DNA of 64,000 nt from Longimicrobiales bacterium. GTDB taxonomy: Bacteria > Gemmatimonadota > Gemmatimonadetes > Longimicrobiales > Gaopeijiaceae. How positions within the stretch are numbered: the first letter of the stretch is position 1; every line of letters starts with the position of its first letter. Positions 17,785 through 33,258 of the stretch are shown piece after piece. The stretch covers positions 224,001 through 288,000 of the forward strand of contig CBDCNQ010000005.1 in the NCBI GenBank assembly GCA_965219445.1. The letters are read 5' to 3'. The translations under genes and the position numbers were made by a program. The notes under the pieces are model-generated. The model saw only the letters and a program-made list of their open reading frames with translations. It had not been told where the DNA came from and searched no databases.

Positions 17785-17802
17785 GACAGTCGCTCCCCGC
17801 GC

Positions 17803-18732
17803 CTAAACTTGGCCGCCCATGTAGAACGACGGGACCTTGAACAGGAGCCCTTCCCGGAGCCGGTCGCGGTTCTGGAACGCGGCCGTGCGCATCGCATCGG
17901 CCATCGCGTTCGTACGGAGGCGCGCGTCCCTCCACTCGGCGAGCCGCTCGAGCCGGCCGATCTCGGCCTGCTGCATCCGGTTCGCCTGCTCGACGGCCTG
18001 ATAGGCGAGCACCTGCGCCACGGCGGCGTTGATCCGGCCCTGGGTCAGCGCGGCAGCGACCTGCGCCTGCTGGAGTGCCGTGGCTGACAGGTTGCCGTTC
18101 GCGGTCAGGTCGTCGAACGAGTCCTGCGCGCTCTCGACGGTCGATGCGAGCGAGGCCGCGGCGTCCATCATCGCGTAGTCGAGCACGCGCTGGCGGTCGG
18201 CGGCCTCCTTGGCCTGGCGGTAGTCCTCAACCGCGCGCGACGACGCCTCGGCCGGGCGGTTACGGAACAGCTCGAGGATGTCCGCCTCGCTCACCTGGTC
18301 GGCCACACCTTGGGCGCTCCGCCAGACGTCGGTGAACGAGTCGCCGCTCCCCATGTCACGCACCGCGTCGACCAGCTCGCCGGCCGCTCCGCTGAAGTCG
18401 GAGCCCCAGTCGAGGCCGTCGCCGACGAGGCCGATGGATCCGGCCGCCAGCTCCGCGAACGGTTCGATCAGCGCGTCCACTTCACCCCGCGCGGCCTCCT
18501 TCATGTAGTCGAGCTGCTCCTCGAGCTCGGTAAGCTGACGGGTCATCGTCCGCATCTGGCGGATCTGGTTCGCGATCTGGGTCGCCTGGTTCACGATCAT
18601 CTGGGCTCGCTGGATCACGCCGCCGATGTCGAAGAGGGCGTTGGCCGGCCCAGCGCTCGCGAGCATCAGGACCGAGACCAAGAGGGCGGTGGTAAGGCTG
18701 CGGTGACGCATGATGAGCTCCTTTGGTGTCAT
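17803..18732 (-). CDS. VirB5/TrbJ-like secreted protein
   Basis: Signal peptide, QIANQIRQ coiled coil, upstream of virB6. Confidence 0.65.
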   Translation of the reverse strand: MTPKELIMRHRSLTTALLVSVLMLASAGPANALFDIGGVIQRAQMIVNQATQIANQIRQMRTMTRQLTELEEQLDYMKEAARGEVDALIEPFAELAAGSIGLVGDGLDWGSDFSGAAGELVDAVRDMGSGDSFTDVWRSAQGVADQVSEADILELFRNRPAEASSRAVEDYRQAKEAADRQRVLDYAMMDAAASLASTVESAQDSFDDLTANGNLSATALQQAQVAAALTQGRINAAVAQVLAYQAVEQANRMQQAEIGRLERLAEWRDARLRTNAMADAMRTAAFQNRDRLREGLLFKVPSFYMGGQV

Positions 18733-20003
18733 TGCCGGGGACCGGCCCTGGGGACCAGGACGTCGGACGTGAACCAGATGCGCAGGCGATGGCCCGCGCG
18801 GATCGTGATCGTGGGTAGCCGGTTCAGGAACCGGTCGAGGATGGAGTTGGCGCTCTGGCCGAGGCCTTGGCCGACGCCCGCCCTCAGGCCGAACGGCGAA
18901 CCGCCGGCCAGGGCGAGTCCGCTTACGACACCGACGGCTCCGGCGGCAGCGAACGTGCTGAAGTAGTGGCGGTCGACCTGGTCCCGAAGCGCGCCCTCGC
19001 CCGCCTGGTTGAGGCCGGTGAACTCGAGGTCGATCCAGCTGCCGTCGGGGAGCAGCAGCCGGTGGAACGCGACCGCGAGCCGACTCTGGTCCGGGTCCTG
19101 AACGGCCCGGGCCGTGCCGACGACGCGTGCGCCGCGCGGGATCAGGACCCGCTGGCGGTCGGCCGAATAGAACGGGACCGAGACCATGGCGAGCACCGGT
19201 CCCGGGAAATCGCCCGTGAGCTGCGTGAGCAGCACCGCCTCGAGGAACGAGCCCTCGTAGATCCGCTCCCAGCCCGGCGGGTCGGCGGGCCGGACGCTCC
19301 GGCCGGGCTGAACCGGTCCCGGTGCCGGACGGGAGGCTTGCTGCCCGGACGCGGGCGCCGCAGCAGCAGCGATGCCCGGGGACCCGAGGAGAAGCTGCTC
19401 CGCAGCCAGCTCGCCCTCGAGCGCCCCGAGCGACTGCTCGAAGGAGGCGAGAGCCGCTTGGACCGTGTTCTCGAGGAGCGCCACATCCGCGTCGGCCGCA
19501 TCGCCGGTGCCGGCTTCGGACGACTCCGCGGTCGCGTTCGGATCCCTGTACGACTGAGCCACGGGAAGGGCACGGAGCGAGCGGGTTCTTCGCTCCAGCT
19601 CCTCCAGGCGAAGCGCCTCCCTAAGCTCCGACTCGGCCGCGCTCACGCCTGGGATCAAGGCTGCGGTGTTCGGCGTCTCCGACTCGGTCTGGAGCCGAGC
19701 CATTTCTTCGGCGGCCGCGGCCTGCCGGCGCTCGAGCTCGGCGCGCGCCCGGGCGGCGGCCTCCAGAGTCTGCCGCTCGGCCTCTTGCCGAATGCGCGCC
19801 TGGAGCGACCGTCCCATCCCGTCGTCGACCGCCTGCGCCTCGGGCAGGGCTACGAGAGTGTCGGCTTCCTGGGGACCCGTCATCGCCCACGAGAAGAGGA
19901 GTCCACCGACGAGCACGGCGATCAACACCACGCCCGCCTTCGTCACGATGCCGCCCGGCAGCGCGCCTTCGGGCGGCGAGACCCACTGCTTCCAGCGGCT
20001 CAT
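18729..20003 (-). CDS. virB10: VirB10/TrbI
   Basis: GSFLEAVL, LIPRGARVVG, DQVDRHY, PTITIRAG. Confidence 0.9.
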   Translation of the reverse strand: MSRWKQWVSPPEGALPGGIVTKAGVVLIAVLVGGLLFSWAMTGPQEADTLVALPEAQAVDDGMGRSLQARIRQEAERQTLEAAARARAELERRQAAAAEEMARLQTESETPNTAALIPGVSAAESELREALRLEELERRTRSLRALPVAQSYRDPNATAESSEAGTGDAADADVALLENTVQAALASFEQSLGALEGELAAEQLLLGSPGIAAAAAPASGQQASRPAPGPVQPGRSVRPADPPGWERIYEGSFLEAVLLTQLTGDFPGPVLAMVSVPFYSADRQRVLIPRGARVVGTARAVQDPDQSRLAVAFHRLLLPDGSWIDLEFTGLNQAGEGALRDQVDRHYFSTFAAAGAVGVVSGLALAGGSPFGLRAGVGQGLGQSANSILDRFLNRLPTITIRAGHRLRIWFTSDVLVPRAGPRQ

Positions 20004-20866
20004 CGGAGCCCGTCCCTGGGCGTGAACCGCCAGCTGGCCCGCTTGTCGCCGATCTGGAGCCACCCGTCGGCCAGCACGTGGCGGGCGATGTAGAGGCCGT
20101 CCTCACTGAGGTCGTAAGCGACGAGCGCCGGCTCCCCGTCCCGGAGCTCATAGAGCGCGGGCGACTCCTGCGCGCGGGACCGGAGATAGGTGAACTGCCC
20201 GTCGTGCCACATCGCTTCGACCAGGAACGGGCGATCGGAGGCGTCCCCGTCGAGCCGGTACTCGAACGCGAGACGCTCCGGATAGCCGGCACGGAACTCC
20301 TCGATCGCCGACTCAGCCTGCGACCGGGCCTCCAGGATGCCGGCCTCGGCCGCCTCCCGGGCACTCCTCGCCGCCTCGGCCGCCTCGGCGGCCATCTGTT
20401 GGTAGGCCGCGACCTCGCTCCGCGCGACGAACGCGGGACGGCCGCTGCCGCCGCCGGACAGTCCCGTCTTCTCCGCGCCGGACTCGACACGAACGACCAG
20501 ATGGGGCGGCCCGTCGCTGTGCTCGGCCACCAGGAACGAGTAGATGCGCCCCGATTCGCAGACGAGCGCGATATTCGTCGCCGCGTCCGGCCGCAGGGGC
20601 TTCAGGAACGCGACGTTCGCGGCGCCGGTCAGGTGCCAGTACTCCGAGTCGCCGACCACGAAGTCCAGGATGTTCTCATCGGCGGGGAGCACGATCACCG
20701 TCGTGTGACGGACTTGGGTGCGGAGCCGGTGGATCCGGTTCTCGCCCTCCTCCGGGATCGGCACCCGCAGGAACGCTTGGTCGTCCTCCTGCTGGGCGGT
20801 AGCCGCGACAGGGAAGGCAGCCAAGAGAAGCGTCAGGAGAGCCATCGGTTGCAATAGGGATCGCAT
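20000..20866 (-). CDS. virB9: VirB9/TrbG
   Basis: Signal peptide, TTVIVLPADE..VGDS, WHDGQFTY..PALY. Confidence 0.88.
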   Translation of the reverse strand: MRSLLQPMALLTLLLAAFPVAATAQQEDDQAFLRVPIPEEGENRIHRLRTQVRHTTVIVLPADENILDFVVGDSEYWHLTGAANVAFLKPLRPDAATNIALVCESGRIYSFLVAEHSDGPPHLVVRVESGAEKTGLSGGGSGRPAFVARSEVAAYQQMAAEAAEAARSAREAAEAGILEARSQAESAIEEFRAGYPERLAFEYRLDGDASDRPFLVEAMWHDGQFTYLRSRAQESPALYELRDGEPALVAYDLSEDGLYIARHVLADGWLQIGDKRASWRFTPRDGLR

Positions 20867-20872
20867 GGCGTA

Positions 20873-22710
20873 TCAGCTCCTTGCGTTGGGGGTGGGGGTG
20901 GGATCGTCTCGGCTCGCGAGAACCTCGAGGGCCCGGGCGAGCCCGTGACGCTCGACGGCCCGGGCCCTCTCCTCGGCGTCGAGCGCGGACGAGGTGTAGA
21001 GCCAGTAGCTCTGGGGATCGACCTCGAGCCGGAGCACGGCGGCCCCGTCAGGGCGGCGCAGATAGAGTTCGCGCTTCGGGATCAGGCCCCGGACCTGGGC
21101 CAGCTCCGAGTCGCTCAGCCGGAAGAGCGCCCCGACCGCGTCGGGGAGTTCGGGGTTCGCGAGGAAGAGCTTGGTCGGGATCGACTCGAGGAGCGCCGCA
21201 GCACCGGGCGTAGCCGTCACGTCGACCGCGGACTGCGTGGCGAGGACCAGCGCGGCGTTCTTCTTCCTCCACGTCTTCGCCGCCTCGGCCAGGTAGTTCA
21301 GTACGGCGGGGTCTTGCAGGTAGCGCCAAGCCTCGTCCACGACCATCAGCTTCAGCCGCGCCGCCTCGGACGGATCCTCAACCTCCAGGCGCATCCGCTC
21401 GAGCAGGTAGGAGAGCGCCGCGTCGCAGAGATCCGGATGCTCGACCGCACCCGCCAGATCGATCACCTGCCAGTCGGCGAACTCGAGGTCCGGCGCTCCG
21501 ACGGCCGGGTTATCGAAGTACGCGCCCCACGCGCCGCCTTGGGTCCAACGGCTCCAGGCCGGCCACGTCGCGGACGGAAGCGACCCAGCCAGGACGCTCA
21601 GCGTCCGCCGCTCCGGCTCGAACGCATACAGATCCTCAATGCGCGCCCGGATCTCGCTCGTATCCGCTCCGCTCGCTTCCCAACCGCCGAGCTTCAGCAG
21701 CCGTAGCACCCAGCCCGTCAGGAACTGGAACGTCCGCGTGCCCGCCGGGAGCGCGAACGGCTGAAGCCGGAGCGTCGGCTCCGCCTCGCCTGGCGAGAGC
21801 TCCAGGTAACGGCCCCCGAGAAACCGGGTCAGCCAACGGTAGGAGCCGCCCAAGTCCAGAATCAGGACGCGCGGGTCGTACCTGAGAGCTTCGACCAGGA
21901 GGAAGTTCAGTGTGAAGCTCTTGCCCGAGCCCGTCGCGCCGAGCATCAACGTGTGGCCCACATCACCGGCGAACAGGTCGTAGTGGTACGCCGTCCTCCA
22001 CGGGGTCTCCAAGACCGCGAGCGACTCGCGACCGAGGTGACGGCTCCGGGGCGTCCCCCCGTGGCGGCCCGAACAGCGGCGCCAGGCACGCCGCCACTCC
22101 GGCCGACACGAACACCCTTCGCACCTGCCGCCCGCGGGGCTGGGCCGGCAGCCGCGAGAACCAGGCCGGCAGCTGGCCGTAGCCCTCCCGGATCACCTTC
22201 GCGTCGTGCGCGGCGAACAGCCGACGCAGGTCGCCGTCCAGCCGCTCGATGCTTCCCAGCTCGCCGTGGAGCGCCACGGTCAGCGTCGCCTCGCCGTAGC
22301 TCACCCCGTCCGCTTCCAGCTCGACCAGCGCCTCGCCCAGACGGTCCGACTCCGTGGCCGCGGCCGAGTCGACCATCGCGGCGGCCGTGCCCTCCGTCTC
22401 CTGCACATGCGCCATCATCGAGTAGCGCCTGGCGAAGTAGTGCCGCTGCGCACCACGGATCCGGCGCCTCGCCGCTTCCATCGCCCACGGCCGCCACTCG
22501 AGCGAGACCGTCATCACCGCGTCCAGGCAGTAGAGCTCCCGGAGCAGGTTCGCGTAGGCTTGGCCGGGCGGGGACAGGAGCGAGTACAGGATCACGGGCT
22601 CGCCGTCGAGCCGCAGGTGTCCTCGCTCCGCCTCGAGTTCCGAGAGGGCGAGTCGCCAGTTCATACCGCTCCCCGTCGCGCCGTCCCACACCGTGCCCGG
22701 ACGGTTGATC
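20873..22710 (-). pseudogene. virB4: VirB4 ATPase, 5'-truncated, with a one-base frameshift in the C6 run at 22055-22060
   Basis: GHTLMLGATGSGKS, VVDEAW, LATQS; deleting one C joins the two ORFs (PRGTPRSRHLGRESLAVLET). Confidence 0.88.
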
Positions 22711-23269
22711 TACTGTCTATCCTGTCCCTATGTCATCATAAGTATATGACCTGTAGTTATTTATGTATGCAGTAGTTTCTGGTCCGACTCGTTTCTATCG
22801 TATGTGATCCCGTATAATTGGCGGGCGATTACACGGGAGCTTACGGTACGTTCGCGGAACCCGTGACGGGTGCTCCCTTGGGCGTCGCGGGCGTCGCGCG
22901 GGGCTGAGGAAGACCCGGCAGATGACGACGTGGCGATCCCGAAGGTTGGAATCTCGTCGCGACGGCGAGGGCGTTCGGGAACGTACTGGCGAGGCGCCTC
23001 TAGTCACCCCGCCGAACGCTTACTGAACGGACGTGTCAGCCCCGGATCGCCACGCGCCCGAGCGCTAACGCCATCTGACCGCCGACTCCTCCTCCCCTGG
23101 GATGAGGAGAACCCGAGCAGAGGCGTGACGAACCACTTGTCGGCCCACGCTCCCTAGCACTACCCCGGGGAGCAACCCCCGTCCGTGGGTGCCCATCCCT
23201 CTCTGCCAACTTACGTGAGACACGGAGCAGCTAAGGAATTAGAGTAGGGCGAAGGCAGAGAAACCGAGG

Positions 23270-23719
23270 ATGCTGAGACACCGAGAGAGAATGAAAGAGA
23301 ATGGAATAGCCCCACCAACCTGGGACGGTAAGCGAAGCGCGGCAGCTCCTGCGGACTCGGAGGTGGTAGATAGGCCGCTGCGCCGGCGGTTCGCTCCGTC
23401 GTACAAGCTGCGGATCGTCGAAGAAGCGGACCGGTGCACGGAGCCCGGAGAGGTTGGCCGACTCCTACGGCGGGAGGGCTTGTACTCGTCGCACCTGACG
23501 ACATGGCGCAAGGCGGCGCATAGCGGGTCCCTGAAAGCGCTGTCGAAGAAACGAGGCCGTAAGCGCGAGCGCAATCCGCTGGAGGAGAAGGTGCGCAAGC
23601 TGGAGCGCGAGAACACTCGCCTCGAGAAGGAGCTCCAGAAGGCGCACTTGATCATCGACGTCCAGGGAAAAGTTGCAGGGCTGCTGGGATTGAGCCTCGA
23701 GGACGGGACGAACTCATGA
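23270..23719 (+). CDS. IS3 OrfA
   Basis: RRRFAPSYKLRIV..LLRREGLYSSHL; slippery G-GGA-AAA at 23665-23671. Confidence 0.88.
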   Translation: MLRHRERMKENGIAPPTWDGKRSAAAPADSEVVDRPLRRRFAPSYKLRIVEEADRCTEPGEVGRLLRREGLYSSHLTTWRKAAHSGSLKALSKKRGRKRERNPLEEKVRKLERENTRLEKELQKAHLIIDVQGKVAGLLGLSLEDGTNS

Positions 23720-24520
23720 AGGCGACCCAGGAGCTAGCCAAGCACGTAGGGGTGAAGCCCGCGTGCGATGCGCTCAGGGTGCCGCGAGCCACGTTCTACC
23801 GTCGTCGGAGTGCATCGACCGGGCATCAGCAGCCCCGCCCGACCCCCGCCCGGGCCTTAAGTGAGAGGGAGCGGGACAAGATTTTCGACACCCTGTGTTC
23901 GGAGCGGTTCGTGGACCGGTCCCCAGCCGAGGTGGTGGCGACGCTGCTCGACGAGGACGTCTACCTGTGCAGCGAGCGTACGATGTATCGCGTTCTGGCT
24001 TCCCAGGTGCCGGTTCAGGAGCGTCGAGCGCAGCGGAGTCATCCCAAATACCAGAAGCCCGAGTTGATGGCGAGGGGCCCGAACCAGGTCTGGTCCTGGG
24101 ATATCACCCGGCTGCTGGGGCCGAAGAAGTGGAGTTACTTCTACCTCTACGTGATCCTGGACATCTTCAGCCGCTACGTCGTGGGATGGATGGTGGCGGA
24201 TCGGGAGAACTCTGCCCTGGCCAGCCGGCTGATCCAGCAGAGTTGCTTGAAGCATGGCGTCCAGCCCCACCTCCTGACCCTGCATTCCGATCGAGGGGCT
24301 CCGATGACGAGCCAATGCACGGCTCAACTACTCGCCGATCTCGGCGTGACCCGCTCGTTGGGCCGACCCCAGGTCTCGGATGACAATCCGTTCTCCGAGG
24401 CTCAGTTCAAGACCTTGAAGTACCATCCCTCGTTTCCCGGCCGGTTCGGGGATCAGGGGCAAGCCAAGACCTTCTGTCGCTCGTTCTTCCGTTGGTATAA
24501 TGCCGAGCACCGCCATGGCG
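23716..24520 (+). pseudogene. IS3 OrfB (rve DDE), truncated
   Basis: WSWDIT, LHSDRG, DNPFSEAQFKT; diverges from copy 2 after EHRHG. Confidence 0.88.
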
Positions 24521-24843
24521 TTCGAGTCGGCTTCCGGGGGGCGGATCTTGACCCCCGGACGGCGAGCGTCGGTGCTGATCGGCGAGTGCACATGAGACAA
24601 CGGGGTGCATGTGCACCGAAACGCCTTTTCGATGTGCGCGCCAGCGCTCCCTTATGTGGCTGCCTGTCTTACAGTTGCGGCACGGCCGCCGGAGCGGCGA
24701 CGCCGCTCCGGAGCTTTCGGCCGAAGAAGGGAGCGACCCCCCGGATTCGATGCCTCGATCGGCATCGCGGAGGGTTGGCATGTGCACACCCATGCCACCC
24801 TCCCACGGGGGTCGCTCCCCTCCAGCAATCCCTAGCGGGAAGG
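24514..24843 (+). repeat. Structured element, copy C
   Basis: Homologous to 598-918; main stem 24729-24741/24807-24819. Confidence 0.85.
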
Positions 24844-24974
24844 CCATCAAGCGCCGCTGCGAGCGCGGCGTATCAACGAATCCGGCCGCCGGTCGCGGCT
24901 TTTCACCAGCTAGGTGGCTCGGCAAGTCGTCCCAGTGAGGTCGGCGTCGGCGCTCGACCAAGCCCGAAACTGCC

Positions 24975-25050
24975 CCGAGGTGGTTGAGGTTGCCGCCGAT
25001 GCGCGCGACCTGCCGGCCGCGTGCGCGCCATGGCCTGCCGGAGCGCGGGC
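24975..25050 (-). pseudogene. mobC: MobC-type relaxosome accessory gene remnant
   Basis: LRQAMARTR and RQVARIGGNLNHL in adjacent frames; resembles the MobC RIGNNLNQ motif. Confidence 0.5.
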
Positions 25051-25225
25051 GTCCAGGGGATCGAAGGGGGCGGAGCCACCCTCGCCAGCCCCTGCCGGGG
25101 ACCCGCGAAGCGTGGCCCCAAAGGGTAGGCTGGCTCATGACTGCTAACGGGTCGTGAGCCAGCCTTCGCGCCCCCGCTCTTCAGCGCCTGACGGACTCGT
25201 CCGCCCACACTGCGAGCGCGGCGGA

Positions 25226-26431
25226 TCAGCGAGCCGGTTCGGCCTCCGGGTCGCGACTCTTGTCGGCCAGGTACGCCGCCCAATCGTCCATCAGGACGCG
25301 CCTGCGCTCGAACAGATCCGAACGCGCGTAGGCAGCTTCCACCTTGTTACGAACCGCATGCGCCAACGCGGCCTCGGCGACTTCACGCGGTGCGTTGGAA
25401 CACTCGCCGCACCAGTCCCTGAAGCTCGACCGGAAGCCGTGCGGCACGGCCGCGATACCCAGGTCTCGAAGCAGCGTGGAGAGTCTGCTGTGGGCAGATG
25501 CGCGGCCCTCCGGCGACGGGAAAACGAGACCGCTGCCGCCGCCGAGCGTCCGCGCCTCGCTCAGTATCTCCACAGCGCGCCCGGACAGCGGCACCCTGTG
25601 GGGGCGATGGGCCTTCGTGCGTTCGGCGGGAACCGTCCACTCTCGAGCCTCCAGGTCGATTTCATCCCAGTGCGCCAAGCGAACCTCTCCCGAGCGGGCC
25701 GCCGTCAACACCAGGAACTCGAAGGCGAGTTTCGTGGCCGGGTAAGCGTGCGACTTCCGCACCGTCTCCATCGCGCCCGCGACCTTCGAGTGATGCAACG
25801 CGCGCATGTGCCGGACTACGGCTTGCTGTCGGCCAAGCGCTTGACCGAGCACATCGCTGGCGGGGTTGTCCGGCCGAAGCCCCATCGCCACCGCCCACTT
25901 CATCACCGCCCCGATGCGCTGGCGCACCCGCCGGGCAGTCACCTGCTTGGCGTGCCAGATCGGTGTCAGCACCGCCAGGATGTCGGCTGTCGTTATCTCG
26001 CCAACGGGTCGATTGCCCAGCTGTGGGAACGCGTAGACGCGCAAGCTGGAGACCCAGTCCTTCTCATGCCTGGCGCTGCGCCAGCCCGGCCGCAGCTGTT
26101 CCAGAACACGGTCGGCCGCCTCGGCGAACGTGGGCATGTCCCGGACCTTGTGCCGCTCGGTCCGCGGATCGCCGCCCGAGCGCGCGATCTTGCGGTTCGT
26201 GAATGCCTTCTCGCGCGCCTCGGCCAGCGATACCAGCTGGTAGCCCCCGAGCCCCAGCGTGCGGTTTCGGCCCTGGATCCGCAGACGCTGCTCCCATCGG
26301 CGCGCGCCCGATCGGTCCACGCGCAGATAGAGGCCGTTCCCATCGCAGTAGTATCCGGGCTTGGCGCTACGCACGAAGGCCGTGCTGAGTGCGTTATGCG
26401 GTCGCCTGCCTCGGTGTTTGGGCAAATCCAA
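25226..26431 (-). CDS. P4-like tyrosine integrase with an arm-binding domain
   Basis: DGNGLYLRV..GLGGYQLVSLAEARE, LTAARSGEV, PHGFRSSF, LAH..AAY. Confidence 0.93.
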   Translation of the reverse strand: MDLPKHRGRRPHNALSTAFVRSAKPGYYCDGNGLYLRVDRSGARRWEQRLRIQGRNRTLGLGGYQLVSLAEAREKAFTNRKIARSGGDPRTERHKVRDMPTFAEAADRVLEQLRPGWRSARHEKDWVSSLRVYAFPQLGNRPVGEITTADILAVLTPIWHAKQVTARRVRQRIGAVMKWAVAMGLRPDNPASDVLGQALGRQQAVVRHMRALHHSKVAGAMETVRKSHAYPATKLAFEFLVLTAARSGEVRLAHWDEIDLEAREWTVPAERTKAHRPHRVPLSGRAVEILSEARTLGGGSGLVFPSPEGRASAHSRLSTLLRDLGIAAVPHGFRSSFRDWCGECSNAPREVAEAALAHAVRNKVEAAYARSDLFERRRVLMDDWAAYLADKSRDPEAEPAR

Positions 26432-27960: not shown

Positions 27961-28007
27961 TCGAACAGCAGTTCTGTCTCTGCATCTTTGAAGAGCCCCC
28001 TCCTTGT

Positions 28008-28193
28008 GTGGGCCGATGCGTCGTTGGGATCGCGCTGGCGGTTGGGGCCAGGGTCTGGGCGATAATCGACGCCTCGTTGACAGTGAAGAGAAACAACGCT
28101 GCGGGCCAAGGCACGATTTCGGGGCTGCGAATGTTGCCGATGCTGGGCCAGAACGGAGCGGGGCTGGGCGTACACATCCCGACTCGTTGGTGA
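28008..28193 (+). pseudogene. 3' remnant of a probable cassette gene preceding attC-1
   Basis: Membrane-protein-like tail; stops 35 bp before GCATAAC. Confidence 0.35.
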
Positions 28194-28259
28194 TGTTCAG
28201 ACTTCGGAGGCGGGCCGCCCAAGCTTCTGCATAACACTTATCAGGCCCCCGGAGTCAAG

Positions 28260-28692
28260 AGCGCGCAAGTTCCCTCCTCCGCGCTGCGGAGCGGCGCCGT
28301 AAGCGGAGTGAGCATCGGTCGCTGAGTCCTCTGACTTGGTTTCCGTTAGCAGGTGCGAGCGCAGTGAGCTCTGCACCAAACACTTATCGAGGTTTAACCG
28401 CCGGATCTCCCTCGAGGCGAGCTCGAAGGCGGCGGAGCAGGAGCCTGCTGGCCGCTCCTACGACCTAGAAATTCATCTGTGCCCTCGTGCCGTCCGACTC
28501 CATTCAAGGAGAGCAGGCTCGGGCCGTGAGGCGGCGGGCCAGTTAGCTCCGGGCTCGGGTGAGGGGCAGAGTCCTGAGTGAGACCGACTCGATGTGTGGG
28601 GAGGGGAGGAGGCGTCCAATCAAGCGAGGCGGCTGTCAGGCATCCGGTGCCCGCTCGAGTTAGAAATCAAGGCTCACAACCTCCCCTCCCCG
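28260..28692 (-). ncRNA. Putative bridge/seek RNA of the IS1111-type element
   Basis: Long structured non-coding end with a donor-matching GATAAGTG (28381-28388) and attC-matching TAAC/CTTG segments in two repeated loops. Confidence 0.65.
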
Positions 28693-29739
28693 TCAGGTGC
28701 GTGTATAGAAGCGTTCGGTGTCGAATGCCTCCCGGTTCTTGAGCATGAAGTAGGTGGCGCGTCCGATGCGAGCCGCAAGGATGCTGAGCGCCTTGCCCTT
28801 GCCGTGGCGGCGCGCGAGCCTCTTGAGATGGGCCTGGCCGCGGACGTTGTCGCGAAGGAAGAGGACGGCCGCCTCACTGAACGCCCACTTGAGGTGTGCG
28901 TTGCCGATCTTGGCTCCTCCGCTGCCGACTCGCTTGCCTGCACTGCGGTGCTCGGGCTTGGCGAGTCGACAGTAGGAGCTGAAGCGCTGCACCGTGCTGA
29001 AGCGAGCGATGTCGTGGATCTCATAGAGCAGCGTGAGGGCCAGGATGCGGCCAATGCCGGGGATGGTTCGCAGCCGCTGCAGCGTGTCGTGGTCGTGGAC
29101 GCGGGCTTCTTCTTCGATCGTGCGCTCGAGTTCTCGGATCACGGGGTCGAAGCGATCCGCGAGTGCGAGATCCGCCTCGATGGTCCTCTGGATCATGCGA
29201 TCGTCGAATGCCTGGGCCAGTCCCTCGCGGTTCTTCTTATAGAGGAGCTGACCGGAGGGCCGAGGCAGGTTGTACTGATGAAAGGTGTTACGGACGTGGG
29301 CGAGGAGTTCGCCGCGCTTGCGTACGAAGTAGAGTCGGCGCCGGAGCACATCGCGCGTGGCTCGCATCTGCGGGGGATAGACGTAGGCCACCGGAAAGGC
29401 ACCCCCGCGCAGCAGCACCGCCGTCTTGTGGGAGTCGATGTGGTCGTTCTTCGCCTTGGCCCCATGGATCGCCTTCATGTAGAGCGCATGGCCGAGCACG
29501 AAGGGGATCTGCTCGCGAGCACAGAGATCGGCGAGCCAGTACCAGCAGAAGATGCACTCGCTGCCCACGACGAGATCTGAACGGTACGGCTCGAGGGCGC
29601 GAAGCAGTGCCTCGCCCTCACAGCGTAGCCTCTTGTGTAGTCGTATCTTGCCCTGGCAGTCCAGGATACAGAGGTAGAGCGTGCGAGCGTGAAGGTCGAT
29701 GCCACAGTAGTATCGATGCTGGCCGGTGTAGAAGCGCAT
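28693..29739 (-). CDS. IS110-family recombinase/transposase
   Basis: CGIDLH, VVGSE, KNDHIDS (DEDD), TIPGIG, HRSAG, GNAHLKWAF. Confidence 0.95.
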   Translation of the reverse strand: MRFYTGQHRYYCGIDLHARTLYLCILDCQGKIRLHKRLRCEGEALLRALEPYRSDLVVGSECIFCWYWLADLCAREQIPFVLGHALYMKAIHGAKAKNDHIDSHKTAVLLRGGAFPVAYVYPPQMRATRDVLRRRLYFVRKRGELLAHVRNTFHQYNLPRPSGQLLYKKNREGLAQAFDDRMIQRTIEADLALADRFDPVIRELERTIEEEARVHDHDTLQRLRTIPGIGRILALTLLYEIHDIARFSTVQRFSSYCRLAKPEHRSAGKRVGSGGAKIGNAHLKWAFSEAAVLFLRDNVRGQAHLKRLARRHGKGKALSILAARIGRATYFMLKNREAFDTERFYTRT

Positions 29740-29947
29740 GGTTCCCCTCCTGGGTTGGATGGATCGAGCGTCGCGCTCTGATCATTCCGTCCTCTCTCTG
29801 AGAGGTCCAGGAGGGGGCCTGCATGAGTATCAAGCGATTGCTGCAGTCGCGGCAACCATCGACCTCGCGCGCTACGCTTGCGGTCACCACATTAGCCGCA
29901 CAGCAGAATCGCAGATCCGTTAGATAGCTCCTACAGGCCGGTACCGT

Positions 29948-30778
29948 ATGCTTGTCAGCCTTAGACCGTCGTTGCGCCATCTTTTGGCGGCGACCCTCAT
30001 GTTTGGGGCGTGCACCGAAGCTGCGGAACAAATCAATGAACCGGATCACTCCGAGGCCATTGCACGCGTCTTCACGGGGCTTCGCTCCGAGCTAGCCGTC
30101 CGCGGAAGGCCCGCTCCAACGACCCATTCGCTCGAGGCCCGGATGGTGGAGTACGACGTGCCGGGCGTCTCGGTCGCGGTTGCGGACGGAGGTCATCTGG
30201 TGTGGGCTCGTGGCTTCGGCGTGAAGGAGCGCGGCAGACCCGACTCTGTGGACGACGCGACGTTATTCCAGGCTGCATCGGTCTCGAAGCCGATTGCCGC
30301 TACTGCTGTGCTCAAGATGGTGGAAGACGGGAGGCTCGACCTCGACACCCCGGTGAACGAGTATCTCACTAGTTGGCAGTTGCCCACCAATGCCCTTACG
30401 GCTGAGGAGCCTGTAACGCTTCGTCGCATCGTCTCTCATGGCGCGGGAACGACGGTCTGGGGATTCGCAGGCTATAGGACTACGGCCCAGCTCCCGACGG
30501 TTCCGCAGATCTTGGACGGGCAGCCACCCGCGAACAACCCAGCCGTCCGCGTTGACCTGATGCCTGGGCAGACGTGGCGGTACTCGGGTGGTGGGGTAAC
30601 TATCGGGCAGTTGGTGATTGCCGACGTAGCGAGGGTCCCGTTCTCAGATGTCCTGGACGAGCTAGTCCTGGGTCCTTTCGGGATGGTTCGTAGTACGTTT
30701 GCTCAGCCGCTTCCGACGAATCGGCAGCACGAGCCCGCTGCAGGCCATCAAGCTGACGGGACAGTGGTGCCGGGTCGG
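29948..30778 (+). pseudogene. Serine hydrolase (beta-lactamase/PBP-like) gene cassette, 3'-truncated
   Basis: VPGVSVAV, FQAASVSK, RYSGGG; starts 22 bp after GTTAGAT; fused to the second IS110 at TCGG. Confidence 0.85.
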
Positions 30779-31666
30779 ATGGGACGCAGCCCGGACTGTG
30801 AGGAGCGTGGGAGCGACACCGGCATAGCTTACGAGGTGCCCCGGTGTACGAAATCGTTTGATGGGCAACGTCTCGGTGGCGATGAGCAATGCCCGGTAGG
30901 GACCGATGCCCGGGACGGTCTCGAGTAGGGCCACTGCCGGGATCTCGCGGCCCACGTGCTCCACTCTGCGATCGAGGGTTTTGATCATCGGTGCGAGCTG
31001 ATCGATGAGCTCCCACTGCATGTCGATGAACAGACGCCGCTCGTCCCCGAGCAGGGGCCACGCCACATCATGCACCCACTGGCGTCCATCCTGGGTGAGC
31101 AGACACCCACGCTCCAGATGAAGCCCGACGTTGTGGATCTGGGCGTGGATGCGGTTCACCATGCGCGTGCGTTCGCGTACGAGTCGCGCCCGGTTGCGTA
31201 GCAGTACCGCCTGCTCCCGCTGCTCGACGCACTTCGGATGGACCTCGGGGATGAGGCCCGCGAGCCGCATACGCGCCAACAACTCGGCGTCGATATCGTC
31301 ACTCTTGTAGTTGGACTCGGCGATGACTCGAAGCCGCTTGGCGTGAGCGAGCACGAAGTCGATCCCCCGCTCCCCGAGTCGATCGAAGAGCCACGGCCAG
31401 GCCGGACTCGTCTCGACGACCACCTCCAGGGGCTGATACTGCTGAAGTAGATCATCGAGTCGATCCTCTTGCGTGTTCTTGATCCGGATGGGTCCGGCCA
31501 CCAGCTGACCTGTATTGCTCACGATGGCGATCACCGAATACGTTGCGTGAGCATCGATTCCTGCGACAAACATGGCTGGCCTCCTTGGGTTGGGTGCCGC
31601 AGGCCTTTGAGCAAAGATCAGCGTAACGCCACGCTCGAGTGAGGTCAGCCTTTCGCCTTATAAGAT
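30775..31666 (-). mobile_element. Second IS110-family element, inserted in attC-2, 3'-deleted
   Basis: Transposase from 31573: AGIDAH, VVVE, KSDDIDA, TVPGIG, then after a frameshift APRSSQSGLRPIR; its left end abuts the attC right arm. Confidence 0.88.
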
Positions 31667-31687
31667 CAGAATCGCAGAGGGTTAGAG
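31667..31687 (+). other. attC site 2, right arm (L'-R')
   Basis: CAGAATCGCAGAGG-GTTAGAG, nearly identical to the attC-1 arm CAGAATCGCAGATCC-GTTAGAT. Confidence 0.8.
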
Positions 31688-31804
31688 AGCACAGGATCAG
31701 CCTTACTCGTTGCTTCCGGCAGAGGAACTCATGACGGTCAGGAATCATGGGCATTGAGGTACGCCGGAACCTGTCAACGCCAGTGAGACACTCTTGGAAA
31801 TCAA

Positions 31805-32812
31805 TTAGAGAGCAATCTCCTGTGTCGTGAGGGATGGGGTGGGAGGATTGATCCAGACGGCCTCCGGGAGTGGTTTAGGCTTCGGCTCACCGGAGACGAA
31901 GCGCTCGGGATGAGCGGCCCATGCCTCACGGAGCACGGCCTTCCTGCAGGCGATGATCCGATCGGCGTGACCGAAGTGGACCTGTTCGGGGGTCAGCATC
32001 GAGATGCCGCCATGGCGGTGCTCGGCATTATACCAACGGAAGAACGAGCGACAGAAGGTCTTGGCTTGCCCCTGATCCCCGAACCGGCCGGGAAACGAGG
32101 GATGGTACTTCAAGGTCTTGAACTGAGCCTCGGAGAACGGATTGTCATCCGAGACCTGGGGTCGGCCCAACGAGCGGGTCACGCCGAGATCGGCGAGTAG
32201 TTGAGCCGTGCATTGGCTCGTCATCGGAGCCCCTCGATCGGAATGCAGGGTCAGGAGGTGGGGCTGGACGCCATGCTTCAAGCAACTCTGCTGGATCAGC
32301 CGGCTGGCCAGGGCAGAGTTCTCCCGATCCGCCACCATCCATCCCACGACGTAGCGGCTGAAGATGTCCAGGATCACGTAGAGGTAGAAGTAACTCCACT
32401 TCTTCGGCCCCAGCAGCCGGGTGATATCCCAGGACCAGACCTGGTTCGGGCCCCTCGCCATCAACTCGGGCTTCTGGTATTTGGGATGACTCCGCTGCGC
32501 TCGACGCTCCTGAACCGGCACCTGGGAAGCCAGAACGCGATACATCGTACGCTCGCTGCACAGGTAGACGTCCTCGTCGAGCAGCGTCGCCACCACCTCG
32601 GCTGGGGACCGGTCCACGAACCGCTCCGAACACAGGGTGTCGAAAATCTTGTCCCGCTCCCTCTCACTTAAGGCCCGGGCGGGGGTCGGGCGGGGCTGCT
32701 GATGCCCGGTCGATGCACTCCGACGACGGTAGAACGTGGCTCGCGGCACCCTGAGCGCATCGCACGCGGGCTTCACCCCTACGTGCTTGGCTAGCTCCTG
32801 GGTCGCCTTCAT
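31805..32812 (-). CDS. IS3 OrfB transposase
   Basis: Intact rve DDE domain. Confidence 0.9.
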   Translation of the reverse strand: MKATQELAKHVGVKPACDALRVPRATFYRRRSASTGHQQPRPTPARALSERERDKIFDTLCSERFVDRSPAEVVATLLDEDVYLCSERTMYRVLASQVPVQERRAQRSHPKYQKPELMARGPNQVWSWDITRLLGPKKWSYFYLYVILDIFSRYVVGWMVADRENSALASRLIQQSCLKHGVQPHLLTLHSDRGAPMTSQCTAQLLADLGVTRSLGRPQVSDDNPFSEAQFKTLKYHPSFPGRFGDQGQAKTFCRSFFRWYNAEHRHGGISMLTPEQVHFGHADRIIACRKAVLREAWAAHPERFVSGEPKPKPLPEAVWINPPTPSLTTQEIAL

Positions 32813-33258
32813 GAGTTCGTCCCGTCCTCGAGGCTCAATCCCAGCAGCCCTGCAACTTTTCCCTGGACGTCGATGATCAAGTGCGCCTTCTGGAGCTCCT
32901 TCTCGAGGCGAGTGTTCTCGCGCTCCAGCTTGCGCACCTTCTCCTCCAGCGGATTGCGCTCGCGCTTACGGCCTCGTTTCTTCGACAGCGCTTTCAGGGA
33001 CCCGCTATGCGCCGCCTTGCGCCATGTCGTCAGGTGCGACGAGTACAAGCCCTCCCGCCGTAGGAGTCGGCCAACCTCTCCGGGCTCCGTGCACCGGTCC
33101 GCTTCTTCGACGATCCGCAGCTTGTACGACGGAGCGAACCGCCGGCGCAGCGGCCTATCTACCACCTCCGAGTCCGCAGGAGCTGCCGCGCTTCGCTTAC
33201 CGTCCCAGGTTGGTGGGGCTATTCCATTCTCTTTCATTCTCTCTCGGTGTCTCAGCAT
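32809..33258 (-). CDS. IS3 OrfA
   Basis: Protein identical to that of 23270-23719. Confidence 0.88.
   Translation of the reverse strand: MLRHRERMKENGIAPPTWDGKRSAAAPADSEVVDRPLRRRFAPSYKLRIVEEADRCTEPGEVGRLLRREGLYSSHLTTWRKAAHSGSLKALSKKRGRKRERNPLEEKVRKLERENTRLEKELQKAHLIIDVQGKVAGLLGLSLEDGTNS

Follow-up and report, generated by a model that had tools for sequence, protein, structure and literature searches.

A predicted three-loop bridge RNA with two target-type loops in an attC-targeting IS1111-type element

In IS621, the loops of the bridge RNA follow a handshake rule, by which two bases match the non-cognate DNA (PMC11208158), and the first handshake base is the position found to covary by Hiraizumi 2024 (PMC11208158). 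Handshake pairing in this system is reported to favor insertion and to disfavor excision (PMC13626964; PMC11208158), and how IS110-family elements are excised despite insertion-favoring handshakes is debated in papers of 2025–2026 (10.1101/2025.10.25.684509; PMC13626964; 10.64898/2026.08.31.748434). A multi-loop form of the donor loop has been noted for IS1111 elements (PMC11208160, section 12). A bridge RNA with two target loops was not found in the literature searched; figures, bioRxiv supplements, parts of Durrant's tables, and patents lie outside that search and may hold one. The closest parallel is a single locus for which several donor loops are predicted (10.64898/2026.08.14.744561).

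The element described here lies in a stretch of 64,000 nucleotides from a Longimicrobiales bacterium (contig CBDCNQ010000005.1 of assembly GCA_965219445.1, positions 224,001 to 288,000), referred to as the window, whose numbering is used throughout. An original prediction held that it is an attC-targeting IS1111-type element whose non-coding end carries two target-type loops and one donor loop. This has been borne out: the layout is kept among homologues, and the loop motifs and the stems of both target loops were located on the minus strand at the predicted coordinates (Table 1). The non-coding right end comprises 456 nt downstream of the recombinase ORF. As judged from sequence comparison, its three-loop layout is a real, deeply conserved, predicted variant of the bridge RNA. 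The layout, the guides of loop 1 and the donor loop, and their handshakes are, taken jointly, very probably correct. The existence of the guide RNA and its binding, taken together with the role proposed below for loop 2, form a tentative claim that leans slightly toward doubt.

Table 1. Features of the element and its insertion site (window coordinates).
Feature	Position	Strand	Details
Whole IS1111-type element	28237..29832	(-)	1596 bp with one TG core copy counted; ends common to genome copies and empty site
IS110-family recombinase, 348 aa	28693..29739	(-)	Intact; PF01548 and PF02371 above cut-off
Target loop 1	28598..28691	(-)	5′ guide TCTAAC 28659-28664; 3′ guide TCGCT-TG 28621-28627; handshake AT 28619-28620
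Target loop 2	28482..28569	(-)	5′ guide GCTAAC 28542-28547; 3′ guide CCT-TG 28505-28509; AA replaces AT handshake, 28503-28504
Donor loop, multi-loop	28373..28484	(-)	5′ strand 28464-28484 pairs left end; 3′ strand 28373-28394; GATAAG-TG 28381-28388; handshake TT 28379-28380
Conserved 3′ hairpin region	28328..28380	(-)	Alternative fold pairing with closing strand of donor loop
Putative -35 box of circle-junction promoter	28253..28258	(-)	-10 would arise across joined ends
Right subterminal inverted repeat, 9 bp	28242..28250	(-)	From sequence
Left subterminal inverted repeat, 9 bp	29813..29821	(-)	From sequence
attC R″ box (GCATAAC) and insertion core	28229..28236	(+)	Follows stop of ORF 28004-28234; from sequence and empty site
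Rest of split attC	29833..29925	(+)	R′ box 29919-29925; palindromic arms; same site family adjoins intI elsewhere in genome

The recombinase has a RuvC-like DEDD domain and a Tnp domain bearing the catalytic serine, the combination that defines IS110/IS1111 proteins, and residues D15, E61, D99, D102, and S266 are kept in 123–133 of 133 alignment rows. It is a distant match to the structures of IS621 and ISCro4 (weak for the IS621 protein, E 3e-6). Cluster rows in the available part of a published supplement assign its lineage to ISGsu4/ISGsu5/ISShfr7/ISShwo5, and ISGsu4 shares, by eye, the MRFYT..CGIDLH start of the window recombinase. No discussion of the target or RNA of these four elements was found in the literature searched. 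The identification of a sister clade (~30% protein identity) as ISGsu4, which follows from an NCBI product label, was ruled out, as ISGsu4 belongs to the clade of the window.

The ends of the element are defined by eight left-end and five right-end copies in its own genome, and an empty insertion site on one contig of run X9 confirms the insertion point. Target and donor have one 2-nt core in common, TG, which is present at both ends of the element (second copy at 28235-28236). The subterminal inverted repeats match perfectly over their 9 bp, within the 7–17 bp of the IS1111 group. The target has the hallmarks of attC, namely GCATAAC and GTTAGAT boxes and palindromic arms, and an intact sister site folds as a hairpin; IntI scores above cut-off on contig C2 of the genome, away from the element copy in the window. 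Left flanks of the own-genome copies end in TCGCT in 8/8 (with a full attC arm in six and a partial arm in two), the right flank is TTAGA in four of the five right-end copies and TTATG in the window copy, and half of the left ends (4/8) are held by the array beside intI. Three unoccupied attC-like sites are present in the genome, every one of which mismatches loop 1. Among homologues, the right flank begins with TT in 74/80, and an attC-like far arm is found in 45 of 69 long left flanks by an alignment score that has no null distribution. The element represents a second, separate attC-targeting lineage, which aims at the R″ box across many environmental phyla, and its insertion is likely to disable cassette mobility.

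The putative promoter at a circle junction is matched among homologues by TTGAC/T at 17–18 nt from the core in 79/82 ends, a count that is partly built in, as the end-finding pattern required TTG. No circle junction was seen in four sequencing runs. The RNA runs, available as contigs, contain 5–12% of the words, and the contigs of run X3 cover parts of the right end at depth 2 and leave the gene uncovered; because contigs cannot show expression, this coverage is not used as evidence.

On contig C2 of the genome (G000 C2:384000-399600), intI is encoded on the cassette strand and the array extends beyond the intI 3′ end, which we take to be an inverted-integrase layout; this array is riddled with copies of the present element and IS3-like copies. 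Several attC copies in the genome stop at, or within a few bases of, the element insertion point with unrelated sequence beyond (C5:685231-685329, C4:293906-293998, and C4:289670-289714 of the same genome, and others), and are possibly scars of half-site reactions or deletions. Within the window, a second IS110-family gene (30662-31573, minus strand) is ~28% identical and its Tnp domain is cut short. The start of an attC-like arm lies upstream of it (~31660-31690) and breaks off after a TTCTG box, and the gene possibly belongs to another element using a different attC position. Window positions 17800-26431 contain a phage-type tyrosine integrase (25226-26431) adjoining genes that resemble, from ORF translations, a type IV secretion cluster, as well as an IS3-like copy that is repeated at 31805-33258. 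This region is probably an integrative element adjoining a small cassette array.

Homologues were drawn from 519 genome hits and 584 metagenome hits, of which the best 80 in each set were used (55–96% identity); with three own copies added, this gave 163 loci. The donor motif is present in 122 of these, and the remaining 41, mostly cut short or divergent, were left out. In 114 of the 122 loci, parsing recovered all four target-type guides, and six further loci are two-looped by eye, so that 120/122 loci of this best-hit set have two target-type loops. The other two (L010 and L092) are one element with a single loop, in which a loop-1 start is joined to a loop-2-like close. As a FastTree tree places this element among two-loop rows, loss of a loop is the simplest reading. 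It is a Burkholderiales element (L010, 2530-2950), of which one copy was found in its genome, and its hybrid target loop looks as if two loops had recombined. Eight plasmid members (Alteromonadales, Vibrio, Manganitrophus) have two loops by eye, and the viral contigs searched contained no relative. In the outgroups L221–L225 (26–30% identity), right ends are shorter and a motif scan gave no clear second module.

Hairpins of loops 1 and 2 both form in the minimum-energy fold of the right end, whose folding energy as a whole is no better than that of shuffles (z -1.0), and Rfam has no match within the window. The two-module pattern occurs twice in the right end and in 0/5000 dinucleotide shuffles, a weak control because the pattern was written from the same sequence; the stronger control is the recurrence of both modules among homologues. 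In the claim that the target loops are duplicated, the shared motifs stand and make an origin by duplication plausible. The equivalence of the two loops does not stand: the guides of loop 2 are shorter and its handshake is incomplete. A covariance model of loop 2 detects that loop in relatives with as little as 49% protein identity, and neither loop 1 nor any loop of the sister clade, which leaves the shared motifs as the basis for duplication.

In the 3′ hairpin region, an AAGTCAG motif is present in 88/103 guide sets, with TT/AA pairs kept in 84–85 of these 88. The 3′ hairpin could pair with the closing strand of the donor loop in both clades, so that two mutually exclusive folds would exist, which may act in maturation or as an on/off switch. 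At seven loci (L002, L109, L121, L129, L172, L200, L206), there are local repeats in the right end, or it continues into donor-loop sequence from another copy; this may reflect self-insertion (or an assembly artefact), because donor-loop DNA mimics the right junction.

Loop 1 is, on the pattern of its covariation, the targeting loop that sets the insertion site. Its 3′ guide has 244 matches to the left flank versus 152.7 expected (n=75), its 5′ guide has 210 matches to the right flank versus 163.5 (n=69), and in an all-against-all scan the five strongest left-flank signals for loop 1 lie on the diagonal (z 4.1–7.1, threshold 3.5); significance is overstated in these tests because the permutations take kin as independent. 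Alignment of homologous right ends with a test of loop/target covariation, the check proposed with the original prediction, came out in favor of both the two-loop layout and the guides of loop 1. Pairing of the loop 1 outer stem is stronger within loci than across loci (-27.9 versus -18.7 kcal/mol), and the two bases of its handshake repeat those that open the left end, AT, in 90/91 stem-pairing calls (12/103 uncalled). Over the 103 guide sets, inner-stem lengths of loop 1 fall into two modes, ~28–45 nt or ~95–136 nt.

The donor motif GATAAGTG at 28381-28388 is identical to the right end plus core (28235-28242), as first noticed. The donor loop itself had been drawn as a hairpin at 28328-28392 with a CCTC/GAGG stem, and this was revised: the outer pair of that stem is kept in 12/88 and the third pair in 56/88, and the true span is that of Table 1. 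The GATAAGTG strand (3′ guide) covaries with the right end (82/90 versus 39 expected at the variable base), three positions of the 5′ strand covary with the left end (56 versus 23.6, 58 versus 44.6, and 66 versus 58.5, of 83), and the closing pairs are conserved, with three pair types at one of them. AAGTCA was considered as a right-donor guide and rejected, being neither conserved nor covarying. The 3′ strands of all three loops end in TG, two bases, and TGG. The donor handshake corresponds to the first two bases of the right flank, TT in 101/103, a count to which the search motif itself contributes. Covarying guides for target and donor, together with handshake bases, are features of IS110/IS1111 bridge-recombinase elements, and the long downstream non-coding region, the top-strand match coming first, and the multi-loop donor are those of IS1111.

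Loop 2 breaks the handshake rule that loop 1 and the donor loop follow: in the window clade, its first handshake base is A in 93/103 and its second is T in only 15/103. It keeps TAAC and TTG, the core-proximal target bases only, and its closing stem has compensatory changes in 8/12 pairs (50 sequences). Covariation with the flanks at variable positions is weak (left, 164 versus 148.4 expected, p 0.016; right, 141 versus 130.9, p 0.094; kin not independent), and independent-pair contrasts, which are underpowered, lean mostly the same way with none significant among the six listed (median p 0.125–1).

The original prediction proposed that duplicated loops read variable or folded attC sites, which is not supported on either count. 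As an alternative guide for variant sites, loop 2 was rejected: at 17 sites poorly matched by loop 1, it matches no better than shuffled loops (p 0.86). It was likewise rejected as a reader of the far attC arm or the folded site, as no covariation with that arm was detected (40 sites, below the family-wise threshold). It is highly improbable that loops 1 and 2 contact the two arms of an attC that is folded or palindromic, or bring about recombination between two attC sites; attC is palindromic with AAC on both arms, and loop 2 does keep TAAC, but the far-arm signal is missing and only 2/14 sites of the sister clade are palindromic.

This sister clade, at 27–32% protein identity and with non-attC targets, forms one branch on the FastTree tree (support 93) and has the same two-target-loop layout (21 loci parsed, and two more by eye). 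For its tests, two near-duplicates were dropped, and the right-flank test excludes two doubtfully parsed loci. Its targets are more variable than those of the window clade, and loop 2 matches the left flank (28 versus 16.4 expected, n=12, p 0.0002), the right flank (54 versus 44.9, n=15, p 0.003; best of two registers, observed and shuffled alike), and the guides of loop 1 (62 versus 31.4, n=19). Between the clades, loop 2 switches, with ~3.5/5 matches to the flanks of its own clade and ~1/5 to those of the other. The handshake of loop 1 follows the left end (23/24 bases, p 0.004, including AA and AG variants) and that of the donor loop follows the right flank (34/36, p 0.0004), whereas that of loop 2, which bears an insert of 8–15 nt in this clade, matches neither junction (p 0.32, 0.77). 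Since loop 2 tracks targets in the sister clade, where few sites are palindromic, it shares, as far as covariation indicates, the target site of loop 1, which it addresses with shorter guides, and is no attC-specific device. At one locus of this clade (L192), the left flank shows the element within one arm of a perfect palindrome (16/16 mirrored bases), which presumably resembles a REP-type repeat.

That guide bases follow the target within the sister clade, and across clades at ~30% protein identity, argues against loop 2 being a structural or vestigial scaffold with no DNA pairing, as does its retention in nearly all loci. Such a role is very unlikely, despite the weak covariation in the window clade, the existence of a single-loop element, and the report that the 5′ stem-loop of IS621 merely aids binding (PMC11208158).

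Instead, loop 2 might be a low-stringency second insertion loop that reads only the invariant core, either as a back-up or as a spare copy that evolution can reprogram. Both of its core-proximal guides are kept, its U-rich 3′ guide could form wobble pairs, it covaries with the guides of loop 1 in the window clade (256 versus 215.8 and 243 versus 205.2, n=103), and, because the first handshake A is kept, it may still insert. However, loop 1 is the better match at 49/61 sites and loop 2 at 4/61, loop 2 gives no rescue at the poorly matched sites, and in the sister clade its handshake has no match, which makes a back-up role unlikely.

The reading preferred here, with a probability just short of even, assigns loop 2 to the exit reaction (excision) and not to a wider target range. 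In a cycle modelled on IS621 and ISEc11, a recombinase dimer would load on each loop, and insertion would use loop 1 paired with the donor loop. Once strands are exchanged, the two handshakes would form, AT with the left end and TT with the target, driving the reaction forward, and the same handshake would lock loop 1 at the left junction, thereby hindering excision. Loop 2, which reads only core-proximal bases on each side and would form fewer handshake pairs, could hold the junction of any occupied site, and would then permit a circle to form, or would work in tandem with loop 1 in direct transfer. Excision suits a loop with short guides and a weakened handshake because handshakes disfavor excision and because circle formation by ISEc11 is reported to require target bases on both sides (PMC11187229). 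Counting against this role, excision of IS621 reportedly does not depend on the target (10.64898/2026.08.31.748434, a 2026 preprint), and the TT handshake of the donor loop would still oppose excision. In addition, the handshake of loop 2 matches no target either, and would therefore be neutral and not excision-driving. The first handshake A that loop 2 keeps, its weak covariation with the flanks in the window clade, and the single-loop element also speak against this role.

Loop 2 could also be cut from the RNA as a target-loop-only species, or have a non-catalytic, regulatory part in the reaction, in which it would load the recombinase on target DNA as a tether or competitor. Target-loop-only RNAs are reported to dominate for CazIS110-1 (10.1101/2025.10.25.684509) and IS1111 seekRNAs (PMC11187229), and each target-type loop here has its own closing stem, but this reading alone leaves the altered handshake unexplained, and it is unlikely.

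If the excision role of loop 2 is extended to the whole lineage, these bridge recombinases would use a three-loop RNA that encodes direction, with a full-handshake loop for insertion and a handshake-less loop for excision, which is possible but leans toward doubtful. If true, it would be a natural RNA-encoded directionality switch that replaces a protein directionality factor, borne by integron-cassette parasites of a second, independent lineage. Two target loops in one natural RNA, distinguished chiefly by guide length and handshake, make the excision question testable by single-loop mutations, and the two-loop design could suggest tools that choose insertion or excision.

Among known systems, IS621 (PMC11208160; PMC11208158; PMC13626964) is like the present element in its DEDD and serine recombinase and in having two guides per internal loop around a 2-nt core. 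In both, the handshake matches the non-cognate DNA, with AU in the target loop. Whereas the IS621 RNA has two loops, lies upstream of the gene, and is ~177 nt long, that predicted for the element has three loops, lies downstream, and spans ~456 nt; its donor loop is a multi-loop, unlike that of IS621, and the two target-type loops that recur among homologues and in the sister clade depart from the canonical arrangement of one target and one donor loop. With ISKpn4, ISPst6, and ISPa25 of the IS1111-attC group (PMC11187229; PMC3001079), the element shares a right-end guide RNA (predicted here), subterminal inverted repeats, and a top-strand match 5′ of the bottom-strand match. As in that group (ISKpn4, ISPst6, ISPa21), it sits close to the 5′ end of attC and antisense to the cassettes (PMC3001079). 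The lineages are nevertheless separate: ISGsu5, compared in place of the window protein, is 16.8% identical to ISPst6 and 17.2% to ISKpn4 in published source data, and the ISGsu lineage and the ISKpn4/ISPst6 group fall in different clusters in the available part of Durrant's table. The ISKpn4/ISPst6 group, whose long RNAs are 148–151 nt, inserts at AA*CG upstream of the GTTAG box (PMC13604230), whereas the element inserts at the R″ box itself, and so belongs neither to that clade nor to its type of site. CazIS110-1 (10.1101/2025.10.25.684509) is like the element in having a second target-binding RNA unit, which it uses in a second transposition pathway; that unit is a processed piece of a single loop, whereas the element encodes a second loop with a sequence of its own.
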